In this document: one piece after another, positions 3,371 to 55,014 of the stretch
Numbering within the stretch: position 1 is the first letter of the stretch
Layout of the letters: every line of letters begins with the position of its first letter
Origin: Verrucomicrobiota bacterium
GTDB taxonomy: Bacteria > Verrucomicrobiota > Verrucomicrobiia > Verrucomicrobiales > DEV007
Direction of reading: 5' to 3'
Assembly (NCBI GenBank): GCA_045046875.1
Contig: JASFYY010000025.1
Location: 1-55,014 of the forward strand
DNA length: 55,014 nt
The notes under the pieces: generated by a model
The model's database searches: none
What the model was told of the DNA's origin: nothing
The model's input: the letters and a program-made list of their open reading frames with translations, nothing else
Made by a program: the position numbers and the translations under genes

Positions 3371-3655
3371 GGATGCAGGAAGAAAAATTAGCCATTGCTT
3401 ATTGAAAACTAGCTTATCGCACATCAACATCATTTCGCCCTTTTAGGGCTGGCAATAAAATCGATCTAACCCCAGCGCTTCGCACCGGGCTATCACATTT
3501 TGTCCTTACAGGACAGTTTGCTTTCATCTCTTTGCACCAACGGTGCTTAATGAGACAACCCAGGGCGAAGCGCTGGGTAAAAAATCCAATTCTTCCAGCC
3601 CTGCAAGGGGCGAAACACATAGCGGTAGTAGCTTAACTATTCCGTCTTACACCCT
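3371..3655. repeat. ~285-bp nested palindromic element, copy 1 (REPIN/MITE-like)
   Basis: Similar to 31576-31866 and 39568-39881; outer IR TTTCGCCC..AGGGCTGG / CCAGCCCT..GGGCGAAA with inner hairpins. Confidence 0.9.
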
Positions 3656-28796: not shown

Positions 28797-29690
28797 ATGG
28801 AACAGGCCATCGACCAGTTTATTCTTTTTCTAGCCACCGAACGTGGGCTATCGGACAATTATCAGCTCGGGGTGCGCCGGGCTCTGGAAACTTTTGCCAA
28901 CTGGCTTGAAAAACAAACCAGTCAATCCAGTCCCCAGACCGTTGAGCTGAGCCATTTATCTGACTACCTGGCCCAACGTAAAAAAACAGGTCTGGCGGTA
29001 GGCAGTTTACGCTTTGAAGCCATCGCCTTGAAAATATTTTTCCGCCATTTATTGAGCCGTGGCCAGATCCCCACTGATCCTTCGGAAAAACTGGACTCTC
29101 CAAAGCTGGAACAACACCTGCCGGAAACCCTCAATGAACGGGATGTCGAAAAACTGATCGAATCCATCGACAACAACAAAGCCCTCGGACGGCGCGATCA
29201 AGCCATGCTCGAACTTTTATACAGCAGTGGCCTGCGGGTATCAGAGCTCACCGAAGCGCGCATCGAAAATCTCGACCTCGACGAAGCTGTCATCCGGGTG
29301 ACTGGCAAAGGTAACAAAACCCGACTGGTTCCTGTTGGGCGTCAGGCCAAAGACGCGCTGAGCGACTACCTGCGCCACGAACGACCTCAACTGGTACGCA
29401 GCAGTCGCACCCACAGTCACATTTTTATCTCTGTTCGTGGCAGCAAACTCACCACCAACCGCATTCGCCAAATTCTCAAAAGCCGCGCGCAAATGGCGGG
29501 CATCAAGATCAATGTCTATCCCCACATGTTAAGACATTCATTCGCCACCCATCTGCTAGGCAACGGTGCCGACCTGCGGGTGATCCAGGAAATGCTCGGT
29601 CACGCGGACATTGCCACCACCCAGATCTACACCCACGTTGACCAGGGCCAACTCAAAAAACTCCACCGCAACTTTCACCCGAGGCCGTGA
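28797..29690 (+). CDS. xerD: Site-specific tyrosine recombinase XerD
   Basis: ERGLS, LYSSGLRVSEL, GKGNK.R, HMLRHSFATHLL, GHADIATTQIYTH. Confidence 0.9.
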   Translation: MEQAIDQFILFLATERGLSDNYQLGVRRALETFANWLEKQTSQSSPQTVELSHLSDYLAQRKKTGLAVGSLRFEAIALKIFFRHLLSRGQIPTDPSEKLDSPKLEQHLPETLNERDVEKLIESIDNNKALGRRDQAMLELLYSSGLRVSELTEARIENLDLDEAVIRVTGKGNKTRLVPVGRQAKDALSDYLRHERPQLVRSSRTHSHIFISVRGSKLTTNRIRQILKSRAQMAGIKINVYPHMLRHSFATHLLGNGADLRVIQEMLGHADIATTQIYTHVDQGQLKKLHRNFHPRP

Positions 29691-31575: not shown

Positions 31576-31866
31576 GGATGCAGGACAAAAAAGTTAGCCT
31601 TTGCTTATTAAAAGCTACCTTATCTCACCTCAACATCATTTCGCCCTTTTAGGGCTGGCAATAAAACTGATTTAACCCCAGCGCTTCGCACTGGGCTATC
31701 GCATTTTGTCCTTACAGGACAGTTTGCTTTCATCTCTTTTTTGCACCAACGGTGCTCAATGATATAGCCCAGTGCGAAGCGCTGGGTAAAAAGTCCAACT
31801 CTTCCAGCCCTACAAAGGGCGAAACGCATCGCGGTCTGCAACTTAACTATCTTGTCCTACACCCCT
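31576..31866. repeat. ~285-bp nested palindromic element, copy 2
   Basis: Colinear with 3371-3655. Confidence 0.9.
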
Positions 31867-39567: not shown

Positions 39568-39881
39568 GGGTGCAGAACAAAAAAGTTAGCCATTGATTAT
39601 TGGAAGCTACCTTGTCACCCATCAACATCATTTCACCCGTTGCCTCCGACGGTCTACGCCACGCTCCGACTCAGGGCTGGTTAAGCCCGGTTCAACCCCA
39701 GTGCTTTGCACCAGGCTATCACATTCTGACCTTACAGGACAGTTTACTTCCCTCTCTTGCACCAACGGTGCTCAATGATACAGCCCAGTGCGAAGCGCTG
39801 GGTAAACAATCCAATTCTTCCAGCCCTGCAAAGGGCGAAACGCATAGTGGTCAGCAACTCAACTATTCTGTCTTACACCCT
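39568..39881. repeat. Nested palindromic element, copy 3, more diverged, with a ~30-bp insertion in the first hairpin
   Basis: Colinear with copies 1 and 2; extra GTTGCCTCCGACGGTCTACGCCACGCTCCGACTC. Confidence 0.85.
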
Positions 39882-40100: not shown

Positions 40101-40145
40101 TATCAGTGTTTATCAGTGTTTATCAGTGAATATCAGTGGTTTAAA
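40101..40145. repeat. ATCAGTG short tandem repeat (4 units, 10-bp period)
   Basis: TATCAGTGTT TATCAGTGTT TATCAGTGAA TATCAGTGGT. Confidence 0.85.
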
Positions 40146-44907: not shown

Positions 44908-44980
44908 ATATACCTGGAGAGGCTAAACATGCCGAGAATACGGGATGCCCTTTTTCAGAAGATCGTTATACTATGAATCG

Positions 44981-46570
44981 ATGCGGTTTGCCAAAACAGT
45001 TTCATCCTTGCCGTCCCTGTTAGCGCTGACAGGGATCGTCTTTGGTTGCACCTTTTTCTGCACAGGTGCCAAAGCACAACACCAAGTCAGCGCGTGGCGG
45101 CTCTTCGATACCAATACCCACGATTTGGTCGAATCGATTGAAAAAGACCAACGGGAACTCGATCAATTGATCGCCCCCACCCAGATCCCCATCACGGGAA
45201 GCATCCGCGGTTATCAAACCCAGGCTTCCGACCAGGCCAAAGCCAGCCCCCCGCTGCGCATTCAATTTGATTTCCCCGAAGCCGTCACCATCGATGGCCT
45301 TGCCCTTTATCCCGCCATCCGCCCCAGCCTCAGCGGCCCCCGCTCCTTTGGCATGCCCCGTCAGTTCCGTATTGCATTCAATCAACAAAGCGATCGCATC
45401 CGCACCACCTTCAGCCTGTCACCGACCAGCCCACCTGGCACCACCGATCCCTCCAACCCGCCCGCCTACGTCGTCCATAACAATAGTGCCCCCTCCTCCC
45501 CGTTGCCGGTATGGATCAAATTCGCTCCGCGCACCGTTCAATCCCTCACCCTGCTGATCCCCCAATTGGGATTGATCAGCCAGGACTCGCAGAGCGGAGC
45601 TTCCCAATACGCCTGCCTGTTCACCGAAATCGAAATCTACCAGGGAGAAAATAACGTCGCTGCCCAGGCCAAGCTCTCCTCCCCCGATTCGCTCGAAAAC
45701 TCCGACTGGGGACTGCGTTTTTTAACCGACGGCCACACCCCGCTGGAACAAACCCATTCACCCAACACCAAAACTTTCTCCAAACGGCGCTGGGCGACCG
45801 ACTTATCCCAACGCAGAATACTCGTTTCCCGCATCGCCCAACAAAAACAAAAACTTAATCAACGCATTCAACAACAGAATAATTTGCTTAACATCACCGC
45901 CGCCACCCTGATCCTGCTGCTACTGGTCGCCGTGATCTCCAACTGGATGCTCTCCCGCCGCCGCCAATTGCGGGCAGTGATGAGCGACCGCGAGCGCATC
46001 GCCAATGATCTGCATGATGAAGTCGGCGGAGCCCTCGGCAGCATCTCCCTGCTAACCCAGAAGCTCATTAATAACAGCGATGATGCCACGCAAAAAAAAC
46101 TACTCGGCAAAGTTCACGCCGCCGCCGCCGAAGCCCAGGCCGGAGTGCGCGAAGCCGTTTGGGCATCCAGCCCTTCCTCCGTCGATAACAAAACCTTCGA
46201 GAACCACCTTCGCGCCATCACTGACCGCATGCTTCCCGATTGCGAGATCCATTGGCAGAGCAACGGCAGCGCCACCACCCCCACCTTTGCCGCACGCAAG
46301 CAGCACCACTTCGGCATGTTTTTTCGCGAAGCGATCCACAACATTCAAAAACACGCCAACGCCAGCGAAGTCAGCCTGCACTTCCGCTGGAACCCGCGCA
46401 ATATGATCTTCACCCTCAGCGACAACGGGGACGGCATGGACAACCTACCTGCCTCCAGTGAAAACTTCCGCACCCTGCGTTACCGCGCCGAGCAACTACC
46501 CGCCAAACTGGAAATCGAAGCGCATCCAGATGGTGGCACCCGCTTCACCCTCACCACTCCCCTGACATGA
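44981..46570 (+). CDS. Sensor histidine kinase (HisKA_3 type)
   Basis: Signal, extracytoplasmic domain, TM, ERIANDLHDEVG, EAIHNIQKHA, DNGDG. Confidence 0.9.
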   Translation: MRFAKTVSSLPSLLALTGIVFGCTFFCTGAKAQHQVSAWRLFDTNTHDLVESIEKDQRELDQLIAPTQIPITGSIRGYQTQASDQAKASPPLRIQFDFPEAVTIDGLALYPAIRPSLSGPRSFGMPRQFRIAFNQQSDRIRTTFSLSPTSPPGTTDPSNPPAYVVHNNSAPSSPLPVWIKFAPRTVQSLTLLIPQLGLISQDSQSGASQYACLFTEIEIYQGENNVAAQAKLSSPDSLENSDWGLRFLTDGHTPLEQTHSPNTKTFSKRRWATDLSQRRILVSRIAQQKQKLNQRIQQQNNLLNITAATLILLLLVAVISNWMLSRRRQLRAVMSDRERIANDLHDEVGGALGSISLLTQKLINNSDDATQKKLLGKVHAAAAEAQAGVREAVWASSPSSVDNKTFENHLRAITDRMLPDCEIHWQSNGSATTPTFAARKQHHFGMFFREAIHNIQKHANASEVSLHFRWNPRNMIFTLSDNGDGMDNLPASSENFRTLRYRAEQLPAKLEIEAHPDGGTRFTLTTPLT

Positions 46571-47232
46571 ATACCGCACCAACCACCACCAGCCCTCCCA
46601 GTTCGAAAAACATCGACGTTTGGTTGATCGAAGACAACCGTCATTTTAGCGAAGCCATCGAATGCATCCTCGACACTGAAGACGGCATCCAACTGAAAGA
46701 AAGTTTCCGCAGTGCCGAAGCTGCGCTCAAAGCACTACCCAAAAAGACGCCACCGCAGGTCATCATTCTCGATCTCGGCCTGCCCGGCATGGGCGGCATC
46801 GAAGCCCTGCCCGAAATCATAAAACACGCACCCAAAAGCCAGGTGCTGGTGCTAACCACCGATGACGGACGCAGTAAGGTTCTGGCCGCCATAGCCAACG
46901 GCGCTTCCGGTTATTTACTCAAAAGTGACGACCTCGACGCCATCGTCTCCGGCATCCGCGATATCGTCGACGGCCGCGCCGCGATCAATTCACGTGTCTC
47001 ACGCATGATCCTCGACATCTTCCGCAAGATCCCCAAACCCCCGCCCGAAGCCAACCTGACCAGCCGCGAATCCGAGATCCTCTGCATGCTCGCCGATGGC
47101 AAAATCAAAAAAGAAGTCGCCGATCTGCTCGGCATCAGCTATTACACCGTCGATACCCACGTCAAACGCATCTACAAAAAGCTCCAGGTCAACAATCTGT
47201 CAGGAGCCATCGCCAGAATGAGCCAGCAGTGA
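46567..47232 (+). CDS. NarL/LuxR family response regulator
   Basis: IED, LDLGLPGMGG, GYLLK, LTSRE...HTH; ATGA overlap with kinase. Confidence 0.93.
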   Translation: MNTAPTTTSPPSSKNIDVWLIEDNRHFSEAIECILDTEDGIQLKESFRSAEAALKALPKKTPPQVIILDLGLPGMGGIEALPEIIKHAPKSQVLVLTTDDGRSKVLAAIANGASGYLLKSDDLDAIVSGIRDIVDGRAAINSRVSRMILDIFRKIPKPPPEANLTSRESEILCMLADGKIKKEVADLLGISYYTVDTHVKRIYKKLQVNNLSGAIARMSQQ

Positions 47233-47627
47233 CTTAGAATCACAGCCCCACCAACAATTCGCAGTTTGGGGTTCTGCTTTGGAGTAAACACCTTCACGCT
47301 CAACAACGGATCATCCGGCAGATCAAACGAGACAAGATCATCTGAGAACGTCTTCCACTTCCCGGACGCATCACGTAAGAGCAACGCCCTTTCCTCTTTT
47401 GTCAGCTTTCTGCCGAGCTGCTTCTCCAAATGTTCGACTCCTACAGCTCCATAGACCGATTCAGTCTCCGGCAGTAGCCCCGACTGATCTCCAGCTAGCT
47501 CCCACTTATTAGTCTCAAGTCCACTTTTTGGCGTTTCAGCTATCGCTCCCGTTATTAAGTGTAGCGCGGCAGCGACGCTCACCGCCGAAGTCATCGTCTT
47601 GCACCAGGTATGGTTTTTTGCTCTCAT
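47172..47627 (-). CDS. Hypothetical exported protein, probably 3'-truncated terminal cassette
   Basis: Signal-like N-terminus; last ~20 codons are antisense to the response regulator. Confidence 0.5.
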   Translation of the reverse strand: MRAKNHTWCKTMTSAVSVAAALHLITGAIAETPKSGLETNKWELAGDQSGLLPETESVYGAVGVEHLEKQLGRKLTKEERALLLRDASGKWKTFSDDLVSFDLPDDPLLSVKVFTPKQNPKLRIVGGAVILSHCWLILAMAPDRLLTWSFL

Positions 47628-47729
47628 TTGTTAAATTCTTTTTGTCTGTCCGGGCTTCGATTCGAGTAAGGTGCGGAACAAATCCAACTCTGCCTCATTA
47701 AGTTGCATTGAATTCCTACTATTGGCCGG

Positions 47730-48275
47730 TTAGCGAATCAACAACATGGGGGCGGCATACTTTTCAGTTCTTATGCTGTGAATCTCGCCGGTTTTGCAAA
47801 ACCGATAAAATACAGCCATCTTACCGGTATCCGTATTGCTCAATTTTCTGAATGTTCGAAGTTTTCGCCAACCCTTTCGCTTAAGATCTTTTTCTCCTAT
47901 AACTTCGTCCTTCCAATCGCCGCTACTGTTTCCTCCTCCATTCCAACGAGTACTAGTCGCCATAAAAACCAGGCCGTCTGTTTGTACTTCGAAGGATAAA
48001 ACCCCGCTATGATGAGGCAGAACAAGAAATCGCACACCGTTTAAAGATTTAGGAACCACTTCCCAGACATAACGATCCGTTGTTCCGTAGCAGCTCACTC
48101 CGGGTTCCAATACTGCCCACTTCAGCTGCTTCGCATTCTCAAATGTCGCCAATTTTGATTTTTGGGCGTCCGTAGTCAGTATCTGTACAGCTTCGCGAGA
48201 GTTTTGAGACCAAGCCTGATGGCTCGTTACCAAAGTGATTAATAAAACATGAAACAGAAATTTATATTTCATCAT
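47730..48275 (-). CDS. Hypothetical exported protein (cassette)
   Basis: MMKYKFLF... signal peptide ending AWS. Confidence 0.7.
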   Translation of the reverse strand: MMKYKFLFHVLLITLVTSHQAWSQNSREAVQILTTDAQKSKLATFENAKQLKWAVLEPGVSCYGTTDRYVWEVVPKSLNGVRFLVLPHHSGVLSFEVQTDGLVFMATSTRWNGGGNSSGDWKDEVIGEKDLKRKGWRKLRTFRKLSNTDTGKMAVFYRFCKTGEIHSIRTEKYAAPMLLIR

Positions 48276-48312
48276 AAAAAAGGTGGTTTGCCCGATCACA
48301 AGACGCAATTGA

Positions 48313-48392
48313 TCGAAACGTTAGCTTACGATTTTTTAATTGGATTTCAACCTCGCAGCAACGGGAAGTTGGCCAACTCCATTTTGTTAAAT
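48313..48392 (-). other. Degenerate/shortened attC-like site
   Basis: Minus strand ATTTAACAAAATG...GCTAACGTTTCG; stop codon overlaps R''; poor internal pairing. Confidence 0.4.
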
Positions 48393-48758
48393 GCTTCGTT
48401 CGGCATTGCTTGCGCTAACTATATAATCCAGAAAAGACCTTAAATGCTCGCCATACGGAGGTGCTAACAAATCACGATGCTCGTCTCGTTTTTCTGATGG
48501 CACAACAAACTCAATCAGCTCCCAATGACCACCGCTGGCTTTAAATCCGAAACGCCACCACTCTCCAAGTTTCGAATTCATTTGAAGAGTGAAATACGAC
48601 GCATTTGAGTCGGCTTTGAATTGGTACGAAATATCTGCTAAAATTTCCTCGACGCTTTCTTCTACAGGCTCGTTCGGAGGCATAGGGAATCGATTGCTCC
48701 TAATAGTGGCCCAGTAGTTTCTTACCAACAGATCGCTGAAGTTATCGATAGAGAGCAT
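48387..48758 (-). CDS. Hypothetical protein (cassette)
   Basis: 123-aa ORF between attC-like remnants. Confidence 0.65.
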   Translation of the reverse strand: MLSIDNFSDLLVRNYWATIRSNRFPMPPNEPVEESVEEILADISYQFKADSNASYFTLQMNSKLGEWWRFGFKASGGHWELIEFVVPSEKRDEHRDLLAPPYGEHLRSFLDYIVSASNAERSI

Positions 48759-48777
48759 GGCTATTGTTGCGTTTTTG

Positions 48778-48850
48778 TATCAACGACTAATCGCCCCTAG
48801 CACTGGGCGGGAGCGCGGTTTGACTAAGAGCTTGAGTGGTTAAAGTTGGT
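48778..48850 (-). other. Truncated attC (R'/L' half), same family as 53013-53138
   Basis: AACG...AGCACTGGGCGGG...TTTGAC...TGGTTAA resembles 53017-53077. Confidence 0.55.
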
Positions 48851-48854
48851 CGGC

Positions 48855-49343
48855 TTATTGAAATTTCCTGCCGCCGAGAAGAGTCACGACGGCTTTGAGG
48901 TAGCGCTCATATTGACGTTTCGAGGGAGAATTGTTACTTCCGTGCGAGTAGATCGACGCATCACTATATTTGATTCTCAGGTGCCATTGCGTTCCATCAT
49001 GCACTCCATGATCAGTATATTCCTCCTTCCAATTCCACACAGATGCGGCATCCAGTGCCTTGCGAAACTCACGCCACTGCTCGCCCGTAACCTTTATTTG
49101 ACTCTTTTCAGTTCCCGGCCCTGAAGTGAAGGTCTGTGAATTATGTAAATAAACAAGTGTTCCCTCAGACTGAAGCTCCACCCGATAAGATTCACCAAGG
49201 AATCCACCTATCGAGGCTTCAAAGGAATCCGGGTGGATGACCGTATTCTTTAGTCGTCTGTTTAAATCCGCAGCCTTGATATCGCCAGTCTCCTTGCTGG
49301 CGCAGCTGCTCATGAGCGCCAATAGAACGCAAATGTATTTCAT
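48855..49343 (-). CDS. Hypothetical lipoprotein (cassette)
   Basis: Lipobox-like LMSSC; DGTQW motif. Confidence 0.75.
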   Translation of the reverse strand: MKYICVLLALMSSCASKETGDIKAADLNRRLKNTVIHPDSFEASIGGFLGESYRVELQSEGTLVYLHNSQTFTSGPGTEKSQIKVTGEQWREFRKALDAASVWNWKEEYTDHGVHDGTQWHLRIKYSDASIYSHGSNNSPSKRQYERYLKAVVTLLGGRKFQ

Positions 49344-49346
49344 AGT

Positions 49347-49400
49347 ATGAAACGATCGGGCACAGGCATCCCTATGGGATGCCTGTGCTTTTCTTTTTCT
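49347..49400. terminator. Perfect 13-bp hairpin with + strand T-run, apparently derived from an attC arm
   Basis: AAC-GATCGG-GCACAGGCATCCC-TAT-GGGATGCCTGTGC-TTTTCTTTTT; arm resembles 54413-54433. Confidence 0.55.
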
Positions 49401-49408
49401 TTTTTCTT

Positions 49409-49440
49409 ATCCGCGTTCATCCGTGTAATCCGCGGTTAAA
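49409..49440. repeat. ATCCGYG variant of the short tandem repeat family
   Basis: ATCCGCGTTCATCCGTGTAATCCGCGGTTAAA. Confidence 0.7.
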
Positions 49441-49500
49441 CTCTTTTAAAATTACCTGTACCGAAACTCAGGGAATATAGACACATCCAATAGTTACAAA

Positions 49501-49576
49501 TAGTTGATGGTTAAAATCAGAGTGAAGCATAACTACAGGGTGGCTCAAGGTTTCGGTGATGACTCTCCGGCGAGTT
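49501..49576 (-). other. Truncated attC (R''/L'' half), same family as 53013-53138
   Basis: AGTTGATGGTTAAAATCAGAGTGAAGCATAACTACAGGGTGGCTCAAGG closely matches 53066-53114. Confidence 0.65.
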
Positions 49577-50189
49577 TGGTGATCCTACGAAGTTCGAGAT
49601 TTAGCCCTTTAGCTCGAGGGTTATGCTCTAATCCGAATTGAGCATATCTTACAGCTTCTGTAATGTTACCTTGTGATTCATATATCCAAGCTGCAATCAT
49701 TGCCGCTCTAGCTATAACAAGGTAATCGTCTGCGACTATCACCGAAGTTCTCTCTGATAGTTGCGCTAAATCAAGTTCCTCTAAGAAAACAGAGAGCTTG
49801 GAATAATGCTGGAAATGCGATTCTCCAATATTAAAATAACATTGTATCAAGTTGGCTGCGCTTTTTTCCGGATTAGTTAAAAACCCCTGATATTTCCACC
49901 AATAATCACTTTTCCCACGAGGCGTTAGTCGTTTTCTGAATAAACATTCATACTCTTTTATTTTTTTGGGATTAGGAAATTCTGTATCTCCTTGGAGCTT
50001 GAGATTTACAGGTTGGATGGCAAGATTTACTGCAAATGAACCGCCGTATTTATTTCCTTGAATATTTATAATTTGAATCGTATCCCCTAGAATCCGATAG
50101 AAATTTTGACCAGAGCCTTTGAATCCTACTTCGCGTAATTTAGGAGAAAACTCTGTTTTCAGCTCGTGAAAAAATCTCTCTTTGGACAT
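49545..50189 (-). CDS. DUF4304-like protein (cassette)
   Basis: PKLREVGFKGSG.NF...INIQ...F.VNLAI...R.RL...D.WW pattern. Confidence 0.7.
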   Translation of the reverse strand: MSKERFFHELKTEFSPKLREVGFKGSGQNFYRILGDTIQIINIQGNKYGGSFAVNLAIQPVNLKLQGDTEFPNPKKIKEYECLFRKRLTPRGKSDYWWKYQGFLTNPEKSAANLIQCYFNIGESHFQHYSKLSVFLEELDLAQLSERTSVIVADDYLVIARAAMIAAWIYESQGNITEAVRYAQFGLEHNPRAKGLNLELRRITKLAGESSPKP

Positions 50190-50202
50190 AGTCAATAATT
50201 CT

Positions 50203-50340
50203 TCATGCCGTGGAGGCTACGCTCACCCTCTGCGGGGCGAGTGCGGCTTGGCTGACAAGGTATCAAATTTAATATGGAATGACAACTGAAAACGGGCATG
50301 GGATAGGCTGAGTGGTTGAGGGTGCCGAGGACTGTTAATC
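50203..50340 (-). other. Degenerate attC, same family as 53640-53764
   Basis: Shares CTCTGCGGG...GTATCAAA...TGACAACTGAAAACGGGCA; R' GTT lost. Confidence 0.65.
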
Positions 50341-50671
50341 AAGCATCGGAATTCTTCAGTGACTTGATTGAAGTGGACGCGCCACATTCGTTGCATTTGA
50401 AAATCCTGAAACTTTGGCAATCAGAATCAACGCGCGCCTCAAAACGCATTCGAGAACCTTTGCAGACATGACAACTGGGTTTAGCAAAATAAGCTCGATA
50501 AATTCCCCAAAAAAAGACAGTGAGAATAATTCCGCCCAAAACCAGGTTGCCATTTTTTGATTCGATATCAATATCCGAAACGAAGTAGGCAACAAATAGC
50601 GAAAGAGCAATAAAATATCCTATATTGGTGATCAGATTAAACGTCTTACTCGCGCAATTTTTAGGATTCAT
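50339..50671 (-). CDS. Two-TM protein with C-terminal zinc ribbon (second gene of a two-gene cassette)
   Basis: Two hydrophobic segments, CHVC...CNEC; 6 bp after the upstream ORF with no attC between. Confidence 0.65.
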   Translation of the reverse strand: MNPKNCASKTFNLITNIGYFIALSLFVAYFVSDIDIESKNGNLVLGGIILTVFFWGIYRAYFAKPSCHVCKGSRMRFEARVDSDCQSFRIFKCNECGASTSIKSLKNSDA

Positions 50672-50677
50672 TTGACC

Positions 50678-51322
50678 TTAACTCTTGTTTGTATCTTTGA
50701 ATTTCAGTGTCCCGTCTTCGATGGCCTGAATCACCTTCTTCACATGCTCGTTGTCAGGATAGGATTTTAAATACTCCTTCAGCTCTTTAATTCCTTCCTC
50801 CATTTTGCCTTGCCTGCACAGTGTAAGGCCAATCGAATACTGTGCATCTTTCTCGCCAAGCTCATAGGACTTCTCCAGGTATTTGAGGGCTTCCTTCTGA
50901 TACTTACTGGTGGAAACGAGAAACATGCCAAAGAGGTAGTTGGCTCGTTTGGACGATGGATCTTCCGCTAGAGCTTGCTCAAAAAGTAGCTTGCCTGATT
51001 CTGCCGTTGGCAAGTCAATGTTGTGACCCATTGCCATTAATTGGCCAAGGTCTGTGAGTAAATCGACATCTTTAATGTTCTTGGTATCGAATTTTTTAAT
51101 CTCCCCAGTCACCAGTATGGTTGATAACGTTATGCGCTTTTGCTGATCTTCGTCGATGAATCGCGGCGGATACTCTCGAATATGCGGTTCCGACCACTCA
51201 ATGAATTCTTTAACTTTGGATTTGTCGATAGTATTTCCGTCTCCGGACAGTATCGAGGACACTTGATCAGCAGCCTGAGCTAAGGAAGCGGAAGCGAGTA
51301 TAACAAGAAAGAGTGCTTTCAT
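50678..51322 (-). CDS. Exported TPR-like protein (cassette)
   Basis: Signal peptide ending AQA; TPR-like helices ANYLFG...ALKYLEKSYELG...AQYSIG. Confidence 0.75.
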   Translation of the reverse strand: MKALFLVILASASLAQAADQVSSILSGDGNTIDKSKVKEFIEWSEPHIREYPPRFIDEDQQKRITLSTILVTGEIKKFDTKNIKDVDLLTDLGQLMAMGHNIDLPTAESGKLLFEQALAEDPSSKRANYLFGMFLVSTSKYQKEALKYLEKSYELGEKDAQYSIGLTLCRQGKMEEGIKELKEYLKSYPDNEHVKKVIQAIEDGTLKFKDTNKS

Positions 51323-51332
51323 TTGGGTTTTT

Positions 51333-51460
51333 GGCTAACGTTTCTAGACAGGTGATTTTTGCAACGGAACCCTGTCGCTTTTGAATAAACTGTGCCGTAA
51401 TCTAGGCCAGAAGGCAAGAGAGCTAATGATGAAGAAATTACCCGCTCTGATTTGTTAAGT
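51333..51460 (-). other. attC site (128 bp)
   Basis: ACTTAAC-AAATC-AGA[G]CGGGTAATTT ... AAATCACCTGTCT-AGAAAC-GTTAGCC. Confidence 0.8.
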
Positions 51461-51471
51461 GTTCTTTAATT

Positions 51472-51840
51472 TTAATTGTCACCATGCGCTGAGTCAGGGA
51501 GCTTTTTCCTTTGTTTTAGAATATAGATGATCAGAAAGCCATATAGGGCGACAATGCAAATTACAGTTAATGGTGCGTTGAATGGGGCGCCGATTGATCC
51601 GAAAGGGCCAAAGCATATGGATGATCCTACCTCTGTGTCGGGGCCTGCGGATAAATTGCTCCATTCCTGAATACCCCAAACTGATCCTCTAAAAGGACCG
51701 AGCCACCTATACTCACTAGGCACATGCATAGCCCAATCACGTGTAAGAACGATGGCAGCATTCGCTGCACAACTCAGGAAACCCATCACAATAATAACTA
51801 ATATAGTGGCTAGCAAACCATTCTGCCGTTTTATTATCAT
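51472..51840 (-). CDS. Hypothetical membrane protein (cassette)
   Basis: N- and C-terminal hydrophobic segments; flanked by attC sites. Confidence 0.65.
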   Translation of the reverse strand: MIIKRQNGLLATILVIIVMGFLSCAANAAIVLTRDWAMHVPSEYRWLGPFRGSVWGIQEWSNLSAGPDTEVGSSICFGPFGSIGAPFNAPLTVICIVALYGFLIIYILKQRKKLPDSAHGDN

Positions 51841-51847
51841 TTTCTTC

Positions 51848-51975
51848 GCACAACGTCGAGCACACCCATCACTGAGTAGGAAGCAAGTGTGAACGAAGGG
51901 GGTGGTGTTTGAGAAGTCATGTTGGTTTTTAACATGGAAGCGGATCGGTGCTTGGTGTGCCGCGTTTTGTTATAG
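51848..51975 (-). other. attC site (128 bp)
   Basis: CTATAAC-AAAAC-GCGGCACACC ... GGGTGTGC-TCGAC-GTTGTGC. Confidence 0.82.
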
Positions 51976-51977
51976 GT

Positions 51978-52295
51978 TTATTCGTCGTAAAACTCTTCGA
52001 TTAACTGGATTGCCATATCATGAAAGCCTACTTCAGAGTCATGATACTGAAATGTATCTCCGTCATCGGAAACAAAGCACACCGCCATAATGTGCTCTTT
52101 CCCGTCTTCGTCAATGGCAGCACCTGACGAATCTAATAACCCTCCTAAGAGCGTTACAATCTCCTCGCAGACCTCTTCTCTGTCGGCGCGATCTTTGACT
52201 TTGCCTTTCAGAGCATTGTCCACGATTTTTATAATTTCAAGGGTTCCGTTTTTTACTCCATCATAATAATCAGGAGAGTTTTCGATTAGTTTCAT
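51978..52295 (-). CDS. Small acidic hypothetical protein (cassette)
   Basis: 105 aa, D/E-rich, fills the space between two attC sites. Confidence 0.75.
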   Translation of the reverse strand: MKLIENSPDYYDGVKNGTLEIIKIVDNALKGKVKDRADREEVCEEIVTLLGGLLDSSGAAIDEDGKEHIMAVCFVSDDGDTFQYHDSEVGFHDMAIQLIEEFYDE

Positions 52296-52309
52296 AGTGA
52301 TTTATTTTC

Positions 52310-52437
52310 CTCTAACGGTCGAGCACAAGCAACCCGCTACTGGCAGTGAGCTTTCGTGTTCATGTTTAGGGTTGGAATTTTCATTTAGGTTTCGACGAAA
52401 GGCGAGCAGCGGGTTGCTCTGCTGCGTTTTGTTCTCC
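52310..52437 (-). other. attC site (128 bp)
   Basis: GGAGAAC-AAAAC-GCA[G]CA[G]AGCAACCCGCT ... AGCGGGTTGCTTGTGC-TCGACC-GTTAGAG. Confidence 0.88.
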
Positions 52438-53004
52438 TTTTTTATTCTTAGTGTCATCGGAAAAACGCTCCATATCGATCAGCTCAAATGTACTCATGGT
52501 ATCGAAAAACTTTGAATTTGCGTCCCAGTCAACACTCTTGGCGCCAGCGATACTAATGATCGCTATATCCGTATTGTTACTCCAGAATGCAGAATATAAT
52601 ATCCGATAATCACCCTCAGTGACTTCAATGCAAGTTCGAGTAAATAACCCCTGATCAACTGCATCACAGTTCTTGTGGACTTTGTCAGAAGATTTCTTTT
52701 TCTGGGCAATAAAATTCTTCACAAAAACTTCTGGGGATTTCCCTGTGCCTTCCTGTACACCTGCAAATACCTGTATCCGGACTCCTGTATCGTATGAATC
52801 CCTTCCACCGTGAGTGTCCTCCTTGGAGATCGTCCACATCCAAGAATTTTCTCGATGCCCTTCAAAATAGAACCAACCCTTGGGACGGAGAATTTTCCCG
52901 CCAGTAGGCTCCATTACTTGCATTACGAACCCGTCAGGGATTTTGTCGTCTGCCAAAACATTTATGGTCAGCAGAGTGATGATAAGAATTGCAGAACGGA
53001 TCAT
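52381..53004 (-). CDS. Hypothetical exported protein (cassette); C-terminus reads into attC
   Basis: Signal peptide MIRSAILII...VLA; tail GEQNAAEQPAARLSSKPK is encoded by the attC. Confidence 0.75.
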   Translation of the reverse strand: MIRSAILIITLLTINVLADDKIPDGFVMQVMEPTGGKILRPKGWFYFEGHRENSWMWTISKEDTHGGRDSYDTGVRIQVFAGVQEGTGKSPEVFVKNFIAQKKKSSDKVHKNCDAVDQGLFTRTCIEVTEGDYRILYSAFWSNNTDIAIISIAGAKSVDWDANSKFFDTMSTFELIDMERFSDDTKNKKGEQNAAEQPAARLSSKPK

Positions 53005-53012
53005 GATTCTTA

Positions 53013-53138
53013 GGAAAACGCGCGGGCTCACCCAGCACTGAGCTGGCGGCGGGCTTTGACGAAGCAGTTGATGGTTAATATTAGAGTGAATCATAACTAC
53101 GGGGCGGCTCAGGGATTCGGCGCTGACTATTGTTAGCT
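53013..53138 (-). other. attC site (126 bp)
   Basis: AGCTAAC (overlaps stop codon)...CTGAGC ... GCTCAG...GAGC-CCGCGC-GTTTTCC. Confidence 0.75.
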
Positions 53139-53627
53139 ATTTTCTGATGTGAAAACATTTTTTGCGTCTAATTCATCATGAATATCACTCCACCTTGCAC
53201 CGGATACCTCAGGTATCAAACGTCGATAACTACCCCAGTTCAGCACATGAATATCTCTGAGGTTTTTATACGGAATACTTGCAACATTCTGTGAATTATA
53301 CGCAGGGGTATGCGCATAAATCATCAACCTTTCAGCATCCAGAATCAAACCTGACCATTCATCATCTGAGCACTTCCGCGGCCCACATAAGCGACCAACG
53401 TAAATCTTGATATTGCTGTGATCTTCGTGATCAAGCCAAGATTCCTGTCCAATACGAACCCCGAGAGTCTGCTCTGATGCTTTGCCCAGATATAACAGTA
53501 CATCAGGCCCATACATCGGATGGCTTCCGTATATCGCGTATAGCCCGTAGTCTTTGTCCTCATTGCGCAATGTTTTCAGGTCGGACAGTGTATGTGGGCC
53601 GTCCCACGATATATGAATGAGGCGCAT
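53133..53627 (-). CDS. GIY-YIG-like nuclease (cassette)
   Basis: GLYAIY...LLYLGKA...R...E..MI...P.YN pattern. Confidence 0.65.
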   Translation of the reverse strand: MRLIHISWDGPHTLSDLKTLRNEDKDYGLYAIYGSHPMYGPDVLLYLGKASEQTLGVRIGQESWLDHEDHSNIKIYVGRLCGPRKCSDDEWSGLILDAERLMIYAHTPAYNSQNVASIPYKNLRDIHVLNWGSYRRLIPEVSGARWSDIHDELDAKNVFTSENS

Positions 53628-53639
53628 AGTATACTTTTA

Positions 53640-53764
53640 AGCTAACGTGAGAGGCTAGCTGATCCTCTGCGGGAGCTAGCGTAGCTTGGTGGATAATGTA
53701 TCAAAGTTAAAATGGGCTGACAACTGAAAACGGGCAGAGGATTAGCTGCGCCGTTTTGTCGATG
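53640..53764 (-). other. attC site (125 bp)
   Basis: CATCGAC-AAAAC-GGC[G]CAGCTAATCCTCTGC ... GCAGAGGATCAGCTAGCC-TCTCAC-GTTAGCT. Confidence 0.85.
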
Positions 53765-53784
53765 TGTTTGACCGTTTTATGGGC

Positions 53785-54399
53785 TCAATAGTCCATATCC
53801 CCACGCCACCACCGGCCATCTATGCGCCGGTAGTAGGGTACATGCGGCACCGGCGGCTCACCTTCGCCCAAGTAGTAAACGAGTTCACCGCCGTCTCGCC
53901 CTCCGTAGGCAGTAACGAAAATTACGCATTCCTCACCTAGCAACTTAACATTGTGAGCTCTGAACAGCCCAATATATTTGGGTGCTTCTGGGTAGAATAT
54001 CTTAGAATCTGCATTTCTTGGATACTGATCAAGATATTTCGTCGCCGCGTCTTCCAAAAACGGTCGACTGATTGAAAATCGGAGATGAAATAAAGCGTCA
54101 GAGGCAACGAGCCCTATGAGGATAATGGTAACCAGTGGTTCGATACTCCAAGCTAAAGTTGGGCGGTTAATCTTCGTAGCCTTACCTCTGCGGCGTTTCC
54201 GTAGCCACCATGTCAAACGAATCGCCCACACTAAAATCCAAATCGGCACGCCAACCAAGAGAATGCCCAAGACCACCAACGGCACCAACTCGAACACTGG
54301 AACCACGGTATCGCTGAAAACGTATAGACAGAGTATGGTGACAATTATCGCATACGGAATTGCAAGTCTAAGGACGGGGGCCTTGAAAAAGCGGATCAT
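53785..54399 (-). CDS. Hypothetical membrane protein (cassette)
   Basis: Three TM segments plus soluble C-terminal domain. Confidence 0.75.
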   Translation of the reverse strand: MIRFFKAPVLRLAIPYAIIVTILCLYVFSDTVVPVFELVPLVVLGILLVGVPIWILVWAIRLTWWLRKRRRGKATKINRPTLAWSIEPLVTIILIGLVASDALFHLRFSISRPFLEDAATKYLDQYPRNADSKIFYPEAPKYIGLFRAHNVKLLGEECVIFVTAYGGRDGGELVYYLGEGEPPVPHVPYYRRIDGRWWRGDMDY

Positions 54400-54408
54400 T
54401 CTTTTTTC

Positions 54409-54531
54409 ATCGAACGTAGAGCACAGGCACCCCGCTACTGACAGCGAGCTTTCGTGTTCAAGTTGAGGCTTAAAGTGTTCATTTTGATTTCAACTCAGGA
54501 TGGGTAGGTGATTCGCTCGACTCGCTTCTGC
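54409..54531 (-). other. attC site with degenerate L''/R'' arm (123 bp), same family as 52310-52437
   Basis: Shares GAACACGAAAGCTC..TG.CAGTAGCGGG; R' GTTCGAT; R'' GCAGAAG. Confidence 0.7.
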
Positions 54532-54551
54532 ATTTAATCTTATTCCAGGGG

Positions 54552-54914
54552 TTAGTCACCCGATTTATTAATAGTTTCCGTGAATGTGCCAGTATTTGGT
54601 GTGATCTGATCGAACTGTAACTGGCATTCGATGGATATTGGATATGTATACTTGCTGATACCATCTATCGAATAAACATTCTCTTTCTGATTTATTGTTT
54701 TGTGTGCAATTTCAAGACCATTGGAATCATAGAATTTTACGCCATAAATACTATTTGTAATACTCGTTGGAAGAACTTTAATTTCTAATCTATTTCCTGT
54801 ATTTTCTTTTACAGAAAAATCAAAATTCGGCTTAGCTATAAAGTTTCTGTGAATAAATAAAGATGCCGGAATGAAAACCAGACTGAGCAGTAAAATTGTT
54901 GCGGCTTTTTTCAT
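54552..54914 (-). CDS. Hypothetical exported/anchored protein (cassette), very AT-rich
   Basis: MKKAATILLL hydrophobic N-terminus. Confidence 0.7.
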   Translation of the reverse strand: MKKAATILLLSLVFIPASLFIHRNFIAKPNFDFSVKENTGNRLEIKVLPTSITNSIYGVKFYDSNGLEIAHKTINQKENVYSIDGISKYTYPISIECQLQFDQITPNTGTFTETINKSGD

Positions 54915-54915
54915 A

Positions 54916-55014
54916 GCAGAACGTTAAAGTGGTGAGGCAACGTGCCTCGGATCGACCATACGACCAAAAGGTTCGCAGAGTCAAGGTTAGCGATCGCCAC
55001 GGCTGCCTCCACCT
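54916..55014 (-). other. attC site, cut by window edge
   Basis: Minus strand GGTGGAGGCAGCCGTGGC ... GGCACGTTGCCTCACCAC-TTTAAC-GTTCTGC immediately before the next ATG. Confidence 0.7.

Follow-up and report, generated by a model that had tools for sequence, protein, structure and literature searches.

The 55,014-nucleotide stretch analysed here (the window) makes up all of contig C25 in a Verrucomicrobiota genome, designated G000, and its positions 47233-55014 hold an array of integron gene cassettes, open reading frames (ORFs) separated by attC-type recombination sites. Sequence comparison within the genus indicates that what is present here is probably the eroding distal part of an array; its start is likely an attI site without an integrase gene (intI) beside it, and an integron integrase (IntI) encoded elsewhere in the genome likely rewrites it in trans. 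More tentatively, the genome may exemplify a distributed integron of the Verrucomicrobiales, in which about ten attI platforms, most of them without intI and some of them copied, would be served in trans and across integrase classes by one or two SOS-controlled IntI proteins.

The host genome is a metagenome-type assembly of 5.59 Mb in 163 contigs, 94.7% complete and with 0.19% contamination. It contains 67 attC-like sites on 21 contigs, against none in the reversed genome, and about a dozen arrays at different chromosomal places. Ten contigs (C25, C19, C57, C67, C43, C13, C76, C81, C26 and C9) terminate in the tail of an array, which leads on into core genes. In the intI-linked arrays of congeners the DNA before the first cassette ends in a conserved block followed by G|TT, which was taken as attI; the attI predictions thus rest on position and conservation. 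Models of this block found ten copies in G000 (six of type A, three of type B and one of type C), and these predicted attI-type array starts are called heads below. An intI lies beside one head only (C117), whereas the other nine have none on their contig. With no integrase gene beside nine of the ten sites predicted for cassette entry, the arrays likely depend for their rewriting on an IntI whose gene lies elsewhere.

The heads are conserved units of 75-540 bp, and among 15 copies of type A the attI core is conserved and the upstream DNA varies. At the lpxA locus the congener G001 has an intact intI-A and the closest relative, G005, has attI only; head C103 still has the promoter box of intI and the final codons of intI-A. 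The three type-B heads (520-540 bp, 83-88% identical) leave the intact integron at one common point, which suggests copying after deletion. They may also keep the last intI-B codons, but this match (76% over 58 nt) overlaps a dispersed repeat and is only suggestive.

Cassette content at the heads differed between genomes. In all four orthologous G000/G005 heads that show a first cassette in both genomes, three of them without intI and one with a broken intI, the cassette differs within 7 nt of G|TT. At the C122-C67 locus, which in G000 is split over these two contigs, G005 carries a whole attI-headed, intI-less array (C241), none of whose four cassettes matches G000, and two cassettes with proteins 93-97% identical occupy different arrays in the two genomes. 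Four of the ten heads end their contig 0-2 nt past GTT, compared with GTT in the last 5 nt at 14 of 326 contig ends; such breaks would be expected had the first cassette varied among the cells sampled.

The fragmented, metagenome-type assembly and the position of the arrays at contig ends would fit an artefact, arising either because several strains were binned together or because repeated attC sites were mis-assembled. We find this hardly credible, since contamination is low, each array is joined to its own set of core genes and heads are present at the same loci in G005. Moreover, the one-contig genome G029, of another family, has two complete integrons and, at 2.735 and 1.717 Mb, arrays with no intI near; the heads of these arrays resemble the attI of the integron at 2.975 Mb (93% over 109 nt and 82% over 45 nt, respectively). 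This recurrence indicates that the layout is not merely an assembly effect. A degenerate attI pattern intended for other families found nothing.

The window array itself lies next to a chromosomal flank that is 97.7% identical in G005 (locus L052). The two genomes share 47242-48414 at 96% and diverge exactly at the R' G|TT of 48784. No stretch of 48400-55014 matched G005 at E<=1e-40, and the next two cassette ORFs of G005 past the divergence have no match in G000. The body of the window's 123-aa ORF is absent from this locus of G005, where the terminal gene is whole (557 aa). IntI recombines folded bottom-strand attC with attI, by which new cassettes enter proximally, and this fits the decayed distal end shared with G005. 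The difference in cassettes between relatives, named by a sequence-only reading of this DNA as a test of its integron, was thus found.

That reading had described an integron cassette array with all ORFs on the minus strand, and both points held: the 13 ORFs chosen in 47233-55014 are all on that strand, mostly single, with one attC per cassette, and the guanine plus cytosine content is 44% compared with 55% in the 7-kb flank. Ten attC-type sites of five sub-families (T1 to T4 and a fifth) make up the array, and their erosion increases distally. The contig end falls within an attC (54916-55014), placing the array start outside the contig. Having at least two attC and no intI on its contig, the array may fall among attC-site clusters that have no integron-integrase (CALINs), with its proximal side off the contig. 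The features, from the flank to the contig end, are as follows.

44945-47232, plus strand: sensor kinase and LuxR-type response regulator of the chromosomal flank (Pfam), convergent with the array; the regulator is present in 6/6 genus genomes.
47241-47627, minus strand: truncated terminal gene, retaining the first 129 codons of a gene whose full length in G005 is 557 aa; the deletion amounts to about 1.38 kb.
47730-48275, minus strand: distal cassette ORF, about 181 aa, common to G005 (96%).
48387-48758, minus strand: cassette ORF of 123 aa, with its body deleted at this locus in G005; a 65% homologue lies in another G005 array.
48778-48865, minus strand: right half of an eroded attC; its R' G|TT at 48784 is the point where the relative's array diverges.
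48855-49343, minus strand: cassette ORF, 162 aa, with a lipobox-like signal and a weak DUF6438 match (Pfam).
49347-49580, minus strand: wrecked attC region, comprising at 49480-49580 what is left of a T3 site (its left half), at 49406-49445 a repeat dispersed in the genome and at 49347-49390 a short, perfect hairpin whose R' is GTTTCAT.
49545-50189, minus strand: cassette ORF, 214 aa, DUF4304 (Pfam PF14137, E 5e-17).
50203-50337, minus strand: eroded, T2-derived attC that has lost the R' GTT (hidden Markov model (HMM) E 5e-16).
50339-50671, minus strand: second ORF of a two-gene cassette, 110 aa, two predicted membrane helices.
50678-51322, minus strand: first ORF of the two-gene cassette, 214 aa, signal peptide-like start and TPR repeats (Pfam TPR_16/TPR_19).
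51333-51460, minus strand: attC of sub-family T4, 128 bp, geometry intact and passing the strict scan; 8 copies in G000.
51472-51840, minus strand: cassette ORF, 122 aa, predicted membrane protein with relatives in the G000 array C86 and in G003.
51848-51975, minus strand: T3-related attC, 128 bp, R boxes intact, 83.2 bits.
51978-52295, minus strand: cassette ORF, 105 aa, acidic, no family.
52310-52437, minus strand: attC of sub-family T1, 128 bp, intact, with extrahelical C and T on the bottom strand; 97.9 bits, folding z -3.1, passing the strict scan.
52381-53004, minus strand: cassette ORF, about 207 aa, signal-peptide-like start, stop within the following attC; a scan of its first 187 aa gave no family.
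53013-53138, minus strand: attC of sub-family T3, 126 bp, arms from different sub-types and poor L-box pairing, 84.9 bits.
53133-53627, minus strand: cassette ORF, 164 aa, likely GIY-YIG nuclease fold from structural and neighbour comparisons.
53640-53763, minus strand: attC of sub-family T2, 124 bp, arms intact, R'' one base short, 71 bits.
53785-54399, minus strand: cassette ORF, 204 aa, predicted membrane protein, no family.
54409-54531, minus strand: attC of sub-family T1, 123 bp, R'' AAC changed to AAG and left arm degraded, 49.9 bits.
54552-54914, minus strand: cassette ORF, 120 aa, hydrophobic N-terminus, no family.
54916-55014, minus strand: attC-like site of the fifth sub-family, truncated by the contig end; R'' is lacking and R' (GTTCTGC) occupies 54916-54922. 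Over 96 nt it is 82% identical to a complete site from the intI-linked array of G001.

The identity of the sites was examined with attC HMMs built from geometry-picked sites elsewhere in G000 and with a covariance model of 36 bottom strands, two of them from the window. The covariance model scored five of the six spacers first noticed at 50-98 bits, while everything in the other 47 kb of the window stayed at or below 12 bits; the sixth spacer (51333-51460) belongs to the separate sub-family T4. Across the alignment of 36 bottom strands both partners vary in 12 of 17 stem pairs, and 83% of the cells pair, against 69% in 500 shuffles and 25-44% with slid partners, for a structure drawn by hand on bottom strands from the same sequences as were tested. 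RNAalifold predicted no pairs on the top-strand alignment, and an Rfam scan gave no match. The strict arrangement R''-5-L''...L'-5/6-R' was found at two window sites (52310-52437 and 51333-51460) and at 25 of the 67 sites genome-wide. In consequence, the attC geometry proposed from the sequence is supported by the model scores and covariation, but in its strict form it holds for those two window sites only and is not significant alone. The proposed near-constant spacer length stood for 128, 128, 128, 126 and 123 bp; the spacer at 53640-53763 is 124 bp, not 125, and the sites are alike in length but not in sequence. The heptamers at the start and end of five window cassettes were complementary at 6, 7, 6, 6 and 4 of 7 positions.

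Bottom-strand folding, suggested earlier as a check, was clear for two window sites (z -3.1 and -2.4); the others gave -1.4 to +1.3, the 53640 site having been folded with an offset of 2 nt. In 22 of 25 intact sites, position 4 of L'' is G on the top strand and hence C when the bottom strand folds. The first extrahelical base is G in most attC and C is also functional, according to the part of PMC3053210 consulted. Within the wrecked attC, the repeat 49406-49445 has at least 20 matches in the genome, and the perfect 15-pair hairpin adjoining it resembles a T1 right arm folded on itself. The T2 attC contains a sigma70-like TTGTCA-17-TACATT with TG (53695-53723, minus strand) aimed at the next cassette; since a promoter scan gave 16 sites compared with 13.4 +/- 4.3 in shuffles, this match is only a lead. 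Across the order, the attC model had matches in 33 of 41 Verrucomicrobiales genomes sampled. In agreement with the Verrucomicrobiota host proposed earlier, the relatives of the flank protein DUF2851 are from Verrucomicrobiales, with 15/15 loci titled as Verrucomicrobia-level taxa.

No intI was found in the window, as the sequence-only reading had stated. A tyrosine recombinase at 28797-29690 was considered and ruled out as an integron integrase, scoring 132 as IntI against a cut-off of 265 and 325 bits as XerD-like. The IntI expected elsewhere in the genome was found: within G000, C117 and C27 alone carry a TIGR02249 match above the cut-off, one each. The C117 gene (intI-A) is of the long form, is transcribed towards the cassettes and has two stops; the C27 gene (intI-B) consists of the last 183 codons without a stop, is cut by the contig end and is 85% identical to the intact divergent IntI of G003. 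The congeners hold three IntI types with a mutual identity of 38-43%, separated in a quick tree.

IntI type A: 470 aa, same orientation as the cassettes (C117, G001, G002, G029).
IntI type B: 469 aa, divergent; C27 belongs here at 85% identity.
IntI type C: 334 aa, divergent; intact in G005.

In types A and B an N-terminal extension, about 140-150 aa long, precedes the TIGR02249 match (L078:8658-10070, L077:10181-11590). Across the order, IntI exceeded the cut-off in 22 of the 41 genomes sampled. TGTTC-N4-GAACA, which we take to be the LexA motif of Verrucomicrobia, has five perfect copies in G000: one precedes a DinB-like gene, one precedes intI-A, one lies within head C103 and two are at other places. 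Tandem copies with two mismatches precede lexA, both intI genes of G029 have a perfect copy, and recA has only a two-mismatch box far upstream. From these box positions, control of intI by LexA as part of the SOS response is likely.

The head to which the window array belongs was sought by synteny with G005, which pairs C117 with C26, C122 with C67 and C17 with C9. C117 was therefore rejected as partner of the window array. The remaining candidates are seven intI-less heads, the headless start of C86, the intI-B of C27 and possibly an unassembled intI-C locus, so that about eight of the ten are without integrase. The window array could be part of a complete integron with intI beyond 55014, either the intI-B of C27, whose array must be off its contig, or an unassembled short-type intI-C; the intact intI-C of G005 adjoins genes that begin C150 in G000, and G000 is 94.7% complete. 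We consider this unlikely, because only two of about ten unpaired candidate array starts carry intI and the C117 intI pairs with the C26 array.

Several observations weigh against a window array that starts at an intI-less attI and is rewritten in trans. No contig overlap or metagenome contig links the window end to a head, and congener gene order differs. Most window sites are degenerate (AAC lost, mismatched arms or half sites), worst distally. Strict geometry alone is not above chance, since 200 local shuffles gave a mean of 0.28 and a maximum of 2 passing sites and the plus strand also gave 2; the covariation controls ignore relatedness, besides using a structure derived from the same sequences. 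G000 shows no intact full-length intI, and the intI-A of C117 is inactivated by different mutations in G000 and G005; these different mutations suggest that IntI-A was intact until recently, and the cassette differences could be older than its loss. In the flanks compared G005 is about 95% identical; it is a separate species representative, and the turnover is therefore not dated. No head was found for the C86 array of G000, and the G003 array at the window locus points the opposite way, with no head recognised there. No attC was detected beside the regulator in the stretch examined of G001, G002 and G004 (1.5 kb only in G004), that is, in 3/5 congeners.

Some of these points would suit a dead relic, split by rearrangement or seeded at an attG site, with cassette differences due to old IntI activity, deletion or homologous replacement between flanks. 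In favour of it are the eroded sites and truncated terminal gene of the window, the break in gene order beside the regulator in congeners with the reversed array of G003, and a type-B head that is 87% identical between G000 and G005 against 97% for its flank; in the text available of bioRxiv 2022.09.11.507474, IntI inserts cassettes at GWT attG sites. On the other hand, the divergence falls exactly on crossover points, contigs break at the attI G|TT, attI cores are conserved with variable upstream DNA and two window sites are intact, and a dead relic is in our view quite improbable.

Under the preferred reading, with entry in trans at intI-less heads, IntI would excise cassettes as circles between folded bottom-strand attC sites, and the circles would insert at the G|TT of any attI head, leaving new cassettes proximal and old ones to erode distally. 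Heads would come from deletion of intI out of complete integrons and in part from copying of deleted heads; the remaining IntI, its gene under LexA control, would serve the intI-less heads in trans.

Among public sequencing runs, none of RNA was listed as containing the stretch. In three public DNA runs, contigs cover the flank and 47273-48414 at about 96-99% identity; the same runs give no cover in five bins inside the array, which is not evidence of absence. Joints between attC sites in these runs were considered as signs of excision and set aside as likely repeat effects. Gene order relative to G005 also differs at window position 40109, beside dispersed repeats (39573-39637), by rearrangement or mis-join, and a broken intI-A locus of G005 (C187; L076, L052) lies about 7 kb from the equivalent point. 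The dispersed repeat of about 85 bp (3376-3458, 31581-31664, 39573-39637) has at least 60 blast matches in the genome and is also inserted in the G005 array.

The cargo of the window array is mostly without a name, as had been predicted: among the 13 ORFs Pfam named only DUF4304, the TPR protein and, weakly, DUF6438. A crude scale found a hydrophobic N-terminal stretch in 9 of 13 ORFs. PADLOC gave no match to the cargo better than E 0.017, NCBIfam none over cut-off and PHROGs only unknown families. The ORF at 53133-53627 had neighbours named GIY-YIG in the Atlas and 52 homologues counting itself; GIY-YIG nucleases took ranks 2-5 in VIA-align at modest Z scores of 4.4-5.4, and G-x-Y, Y-x-G, R and N are conserved. 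It had no Pfam match and no Foldseek match at E<=0.001, and no viral contig was found for it. A GIY-YIG nuclease fold is likely from these model comparisons; a defence role is a guess. Toxin-antitoxin-like two-gene cassettes, judged by eye, are common in sister arrays (G000 C43, C76, C81, C9 and C159; G005 C200, C339 and C22), and none was recognised in the window.

Other attC-bearing places of G000 vary in form. C128:1-3870 (L021) has two tandem type-A heads, with four or five cassettes after the first and the second at the contig end. A decayed solo attC at C55:56061-56174, after an acetyl-CoA synthetase-like gene, is a likely remnant, the congener G002 having a complete integron there (C269, L081). 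The small internal array at C54:78918-80459 (L020), with one opposite-strand ORF, lies near a resolvase-like gene in low-GC DNA and is possibly a mobile island. Solo sites or small attC clusters occur on C8, C55, C59, C133, C54 and C159.

The sedentary chromosomal integrons of Vibrio have Vibrio cholerae repeats (VCRs), attC sites of about 125 bp and near-constant length, in a long array. The window array resembles them in attC length and mostly unknown cargo, and its sister arrays in toxin-antitoxin cassettes. It is unlike them in having at least five attC sub-families and the extrahelical C in 22/25 intact sites. Of the likeness to sedentary integrons proposed earlier, the chromosomal array in a Verrucomicrobiota host is supported, but there is no one long array of Vibrio type; this is one of about a dozen short ones. 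As for the criteria of Cury et al. for a sedentary integron (more than 19 attC, or presence in all genomes of a species), ten sites were counted before the contig end and an array lies at this locus in 3/6 genus genomes.

The literature was available in part, and comparisons hold for the text seen. CALINs, with several attC and co-oriented ORFs but no intI nearby, are described in PMC4889954, which names Verrucomicrobia among the hosts of integrons, and surveys list Verrucomicrobia integrons (PMC4889954, PMC8618304). Origin of CALINs by intI loss, secondary-site insertion or rearrangement, and exchange with integrons of the same genome, were suggested in PMC4889954; CALIN origins and trans mobilisation are also proposed in PMC8618304 and bioRxiv 2025.06.18.660453. 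In PMC4889954 attI was not searched for in most integrons, whereas here most CALIN-type arrays keep a conserved attI head, about ten per genome and of three integrase classes. A similar case is the CALIN of Shewanella prophage M16-3 (Qi et al. 2023, PMC9892861), which has no integrase but an attI copy of its own at the head, and a complete integron close by; that is a single prophage case, while the present arrays are chromosomal, at many loci, conserved between related species and with different first cassettes. In Xanthomonas (bioRxiv 2025.06.18.660453) intI is often broken or deleted, CALINs lie at several conserved loci and trans mobilisation is proposed; there a single ancestral intI lies at ilvD and the text seen mentions no attI at the additional CALINs, whereas here three IntI lineages occupy different loci in congeners. 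The Treponema integrons with inverted integrase (Cury et al. 2016) likewise have IntI transcribed towards the cassettes, as type A in other arrays of this genome, which differs in being about 460-470 aa with a long N-terminal extension. Insertion at attG, described with single attC sites lacking integron-integrases (SALINs) in bioRxiv 2022.09.11.507474, could account for the solo sites and small clusters, but it brings no conserved attI head of 75-540 bp. Archaeal assemblies with up to 107 attC on 18 contigs are reported in bioRxiv 2022.02.06.479319. No description of multiple attI-headed CALINs genome-wide or of a Verrucomicrobiales attI was found in the literature outside supplements and most subscription papers, and IntegronFinder survey tables could list such arrays. 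Already published are Verrucomicrobia integrons, CALINs and a single prophage CALIN that carries its own attI; this genome-wide layout appears to be new.

The window array alone is ordinary, and what appears new is its setting, about ten attI-like platforms with almost no integrase. The origin and activity of CALINs are treated as open, and attI as known for few integrons, in the sections available of PMC4889954 and PMC8618304. With three predicted attI types, matching IntI, intI-less heads and orthologous loci of different content, trans activity and cross-class specificity are directly testable in this genus, which also provides an attC model and a pool of unnamed cassette genes. If the reading is true, many elements filed as inert CALINs would be live platforms, and cassettes would move between distant loci.

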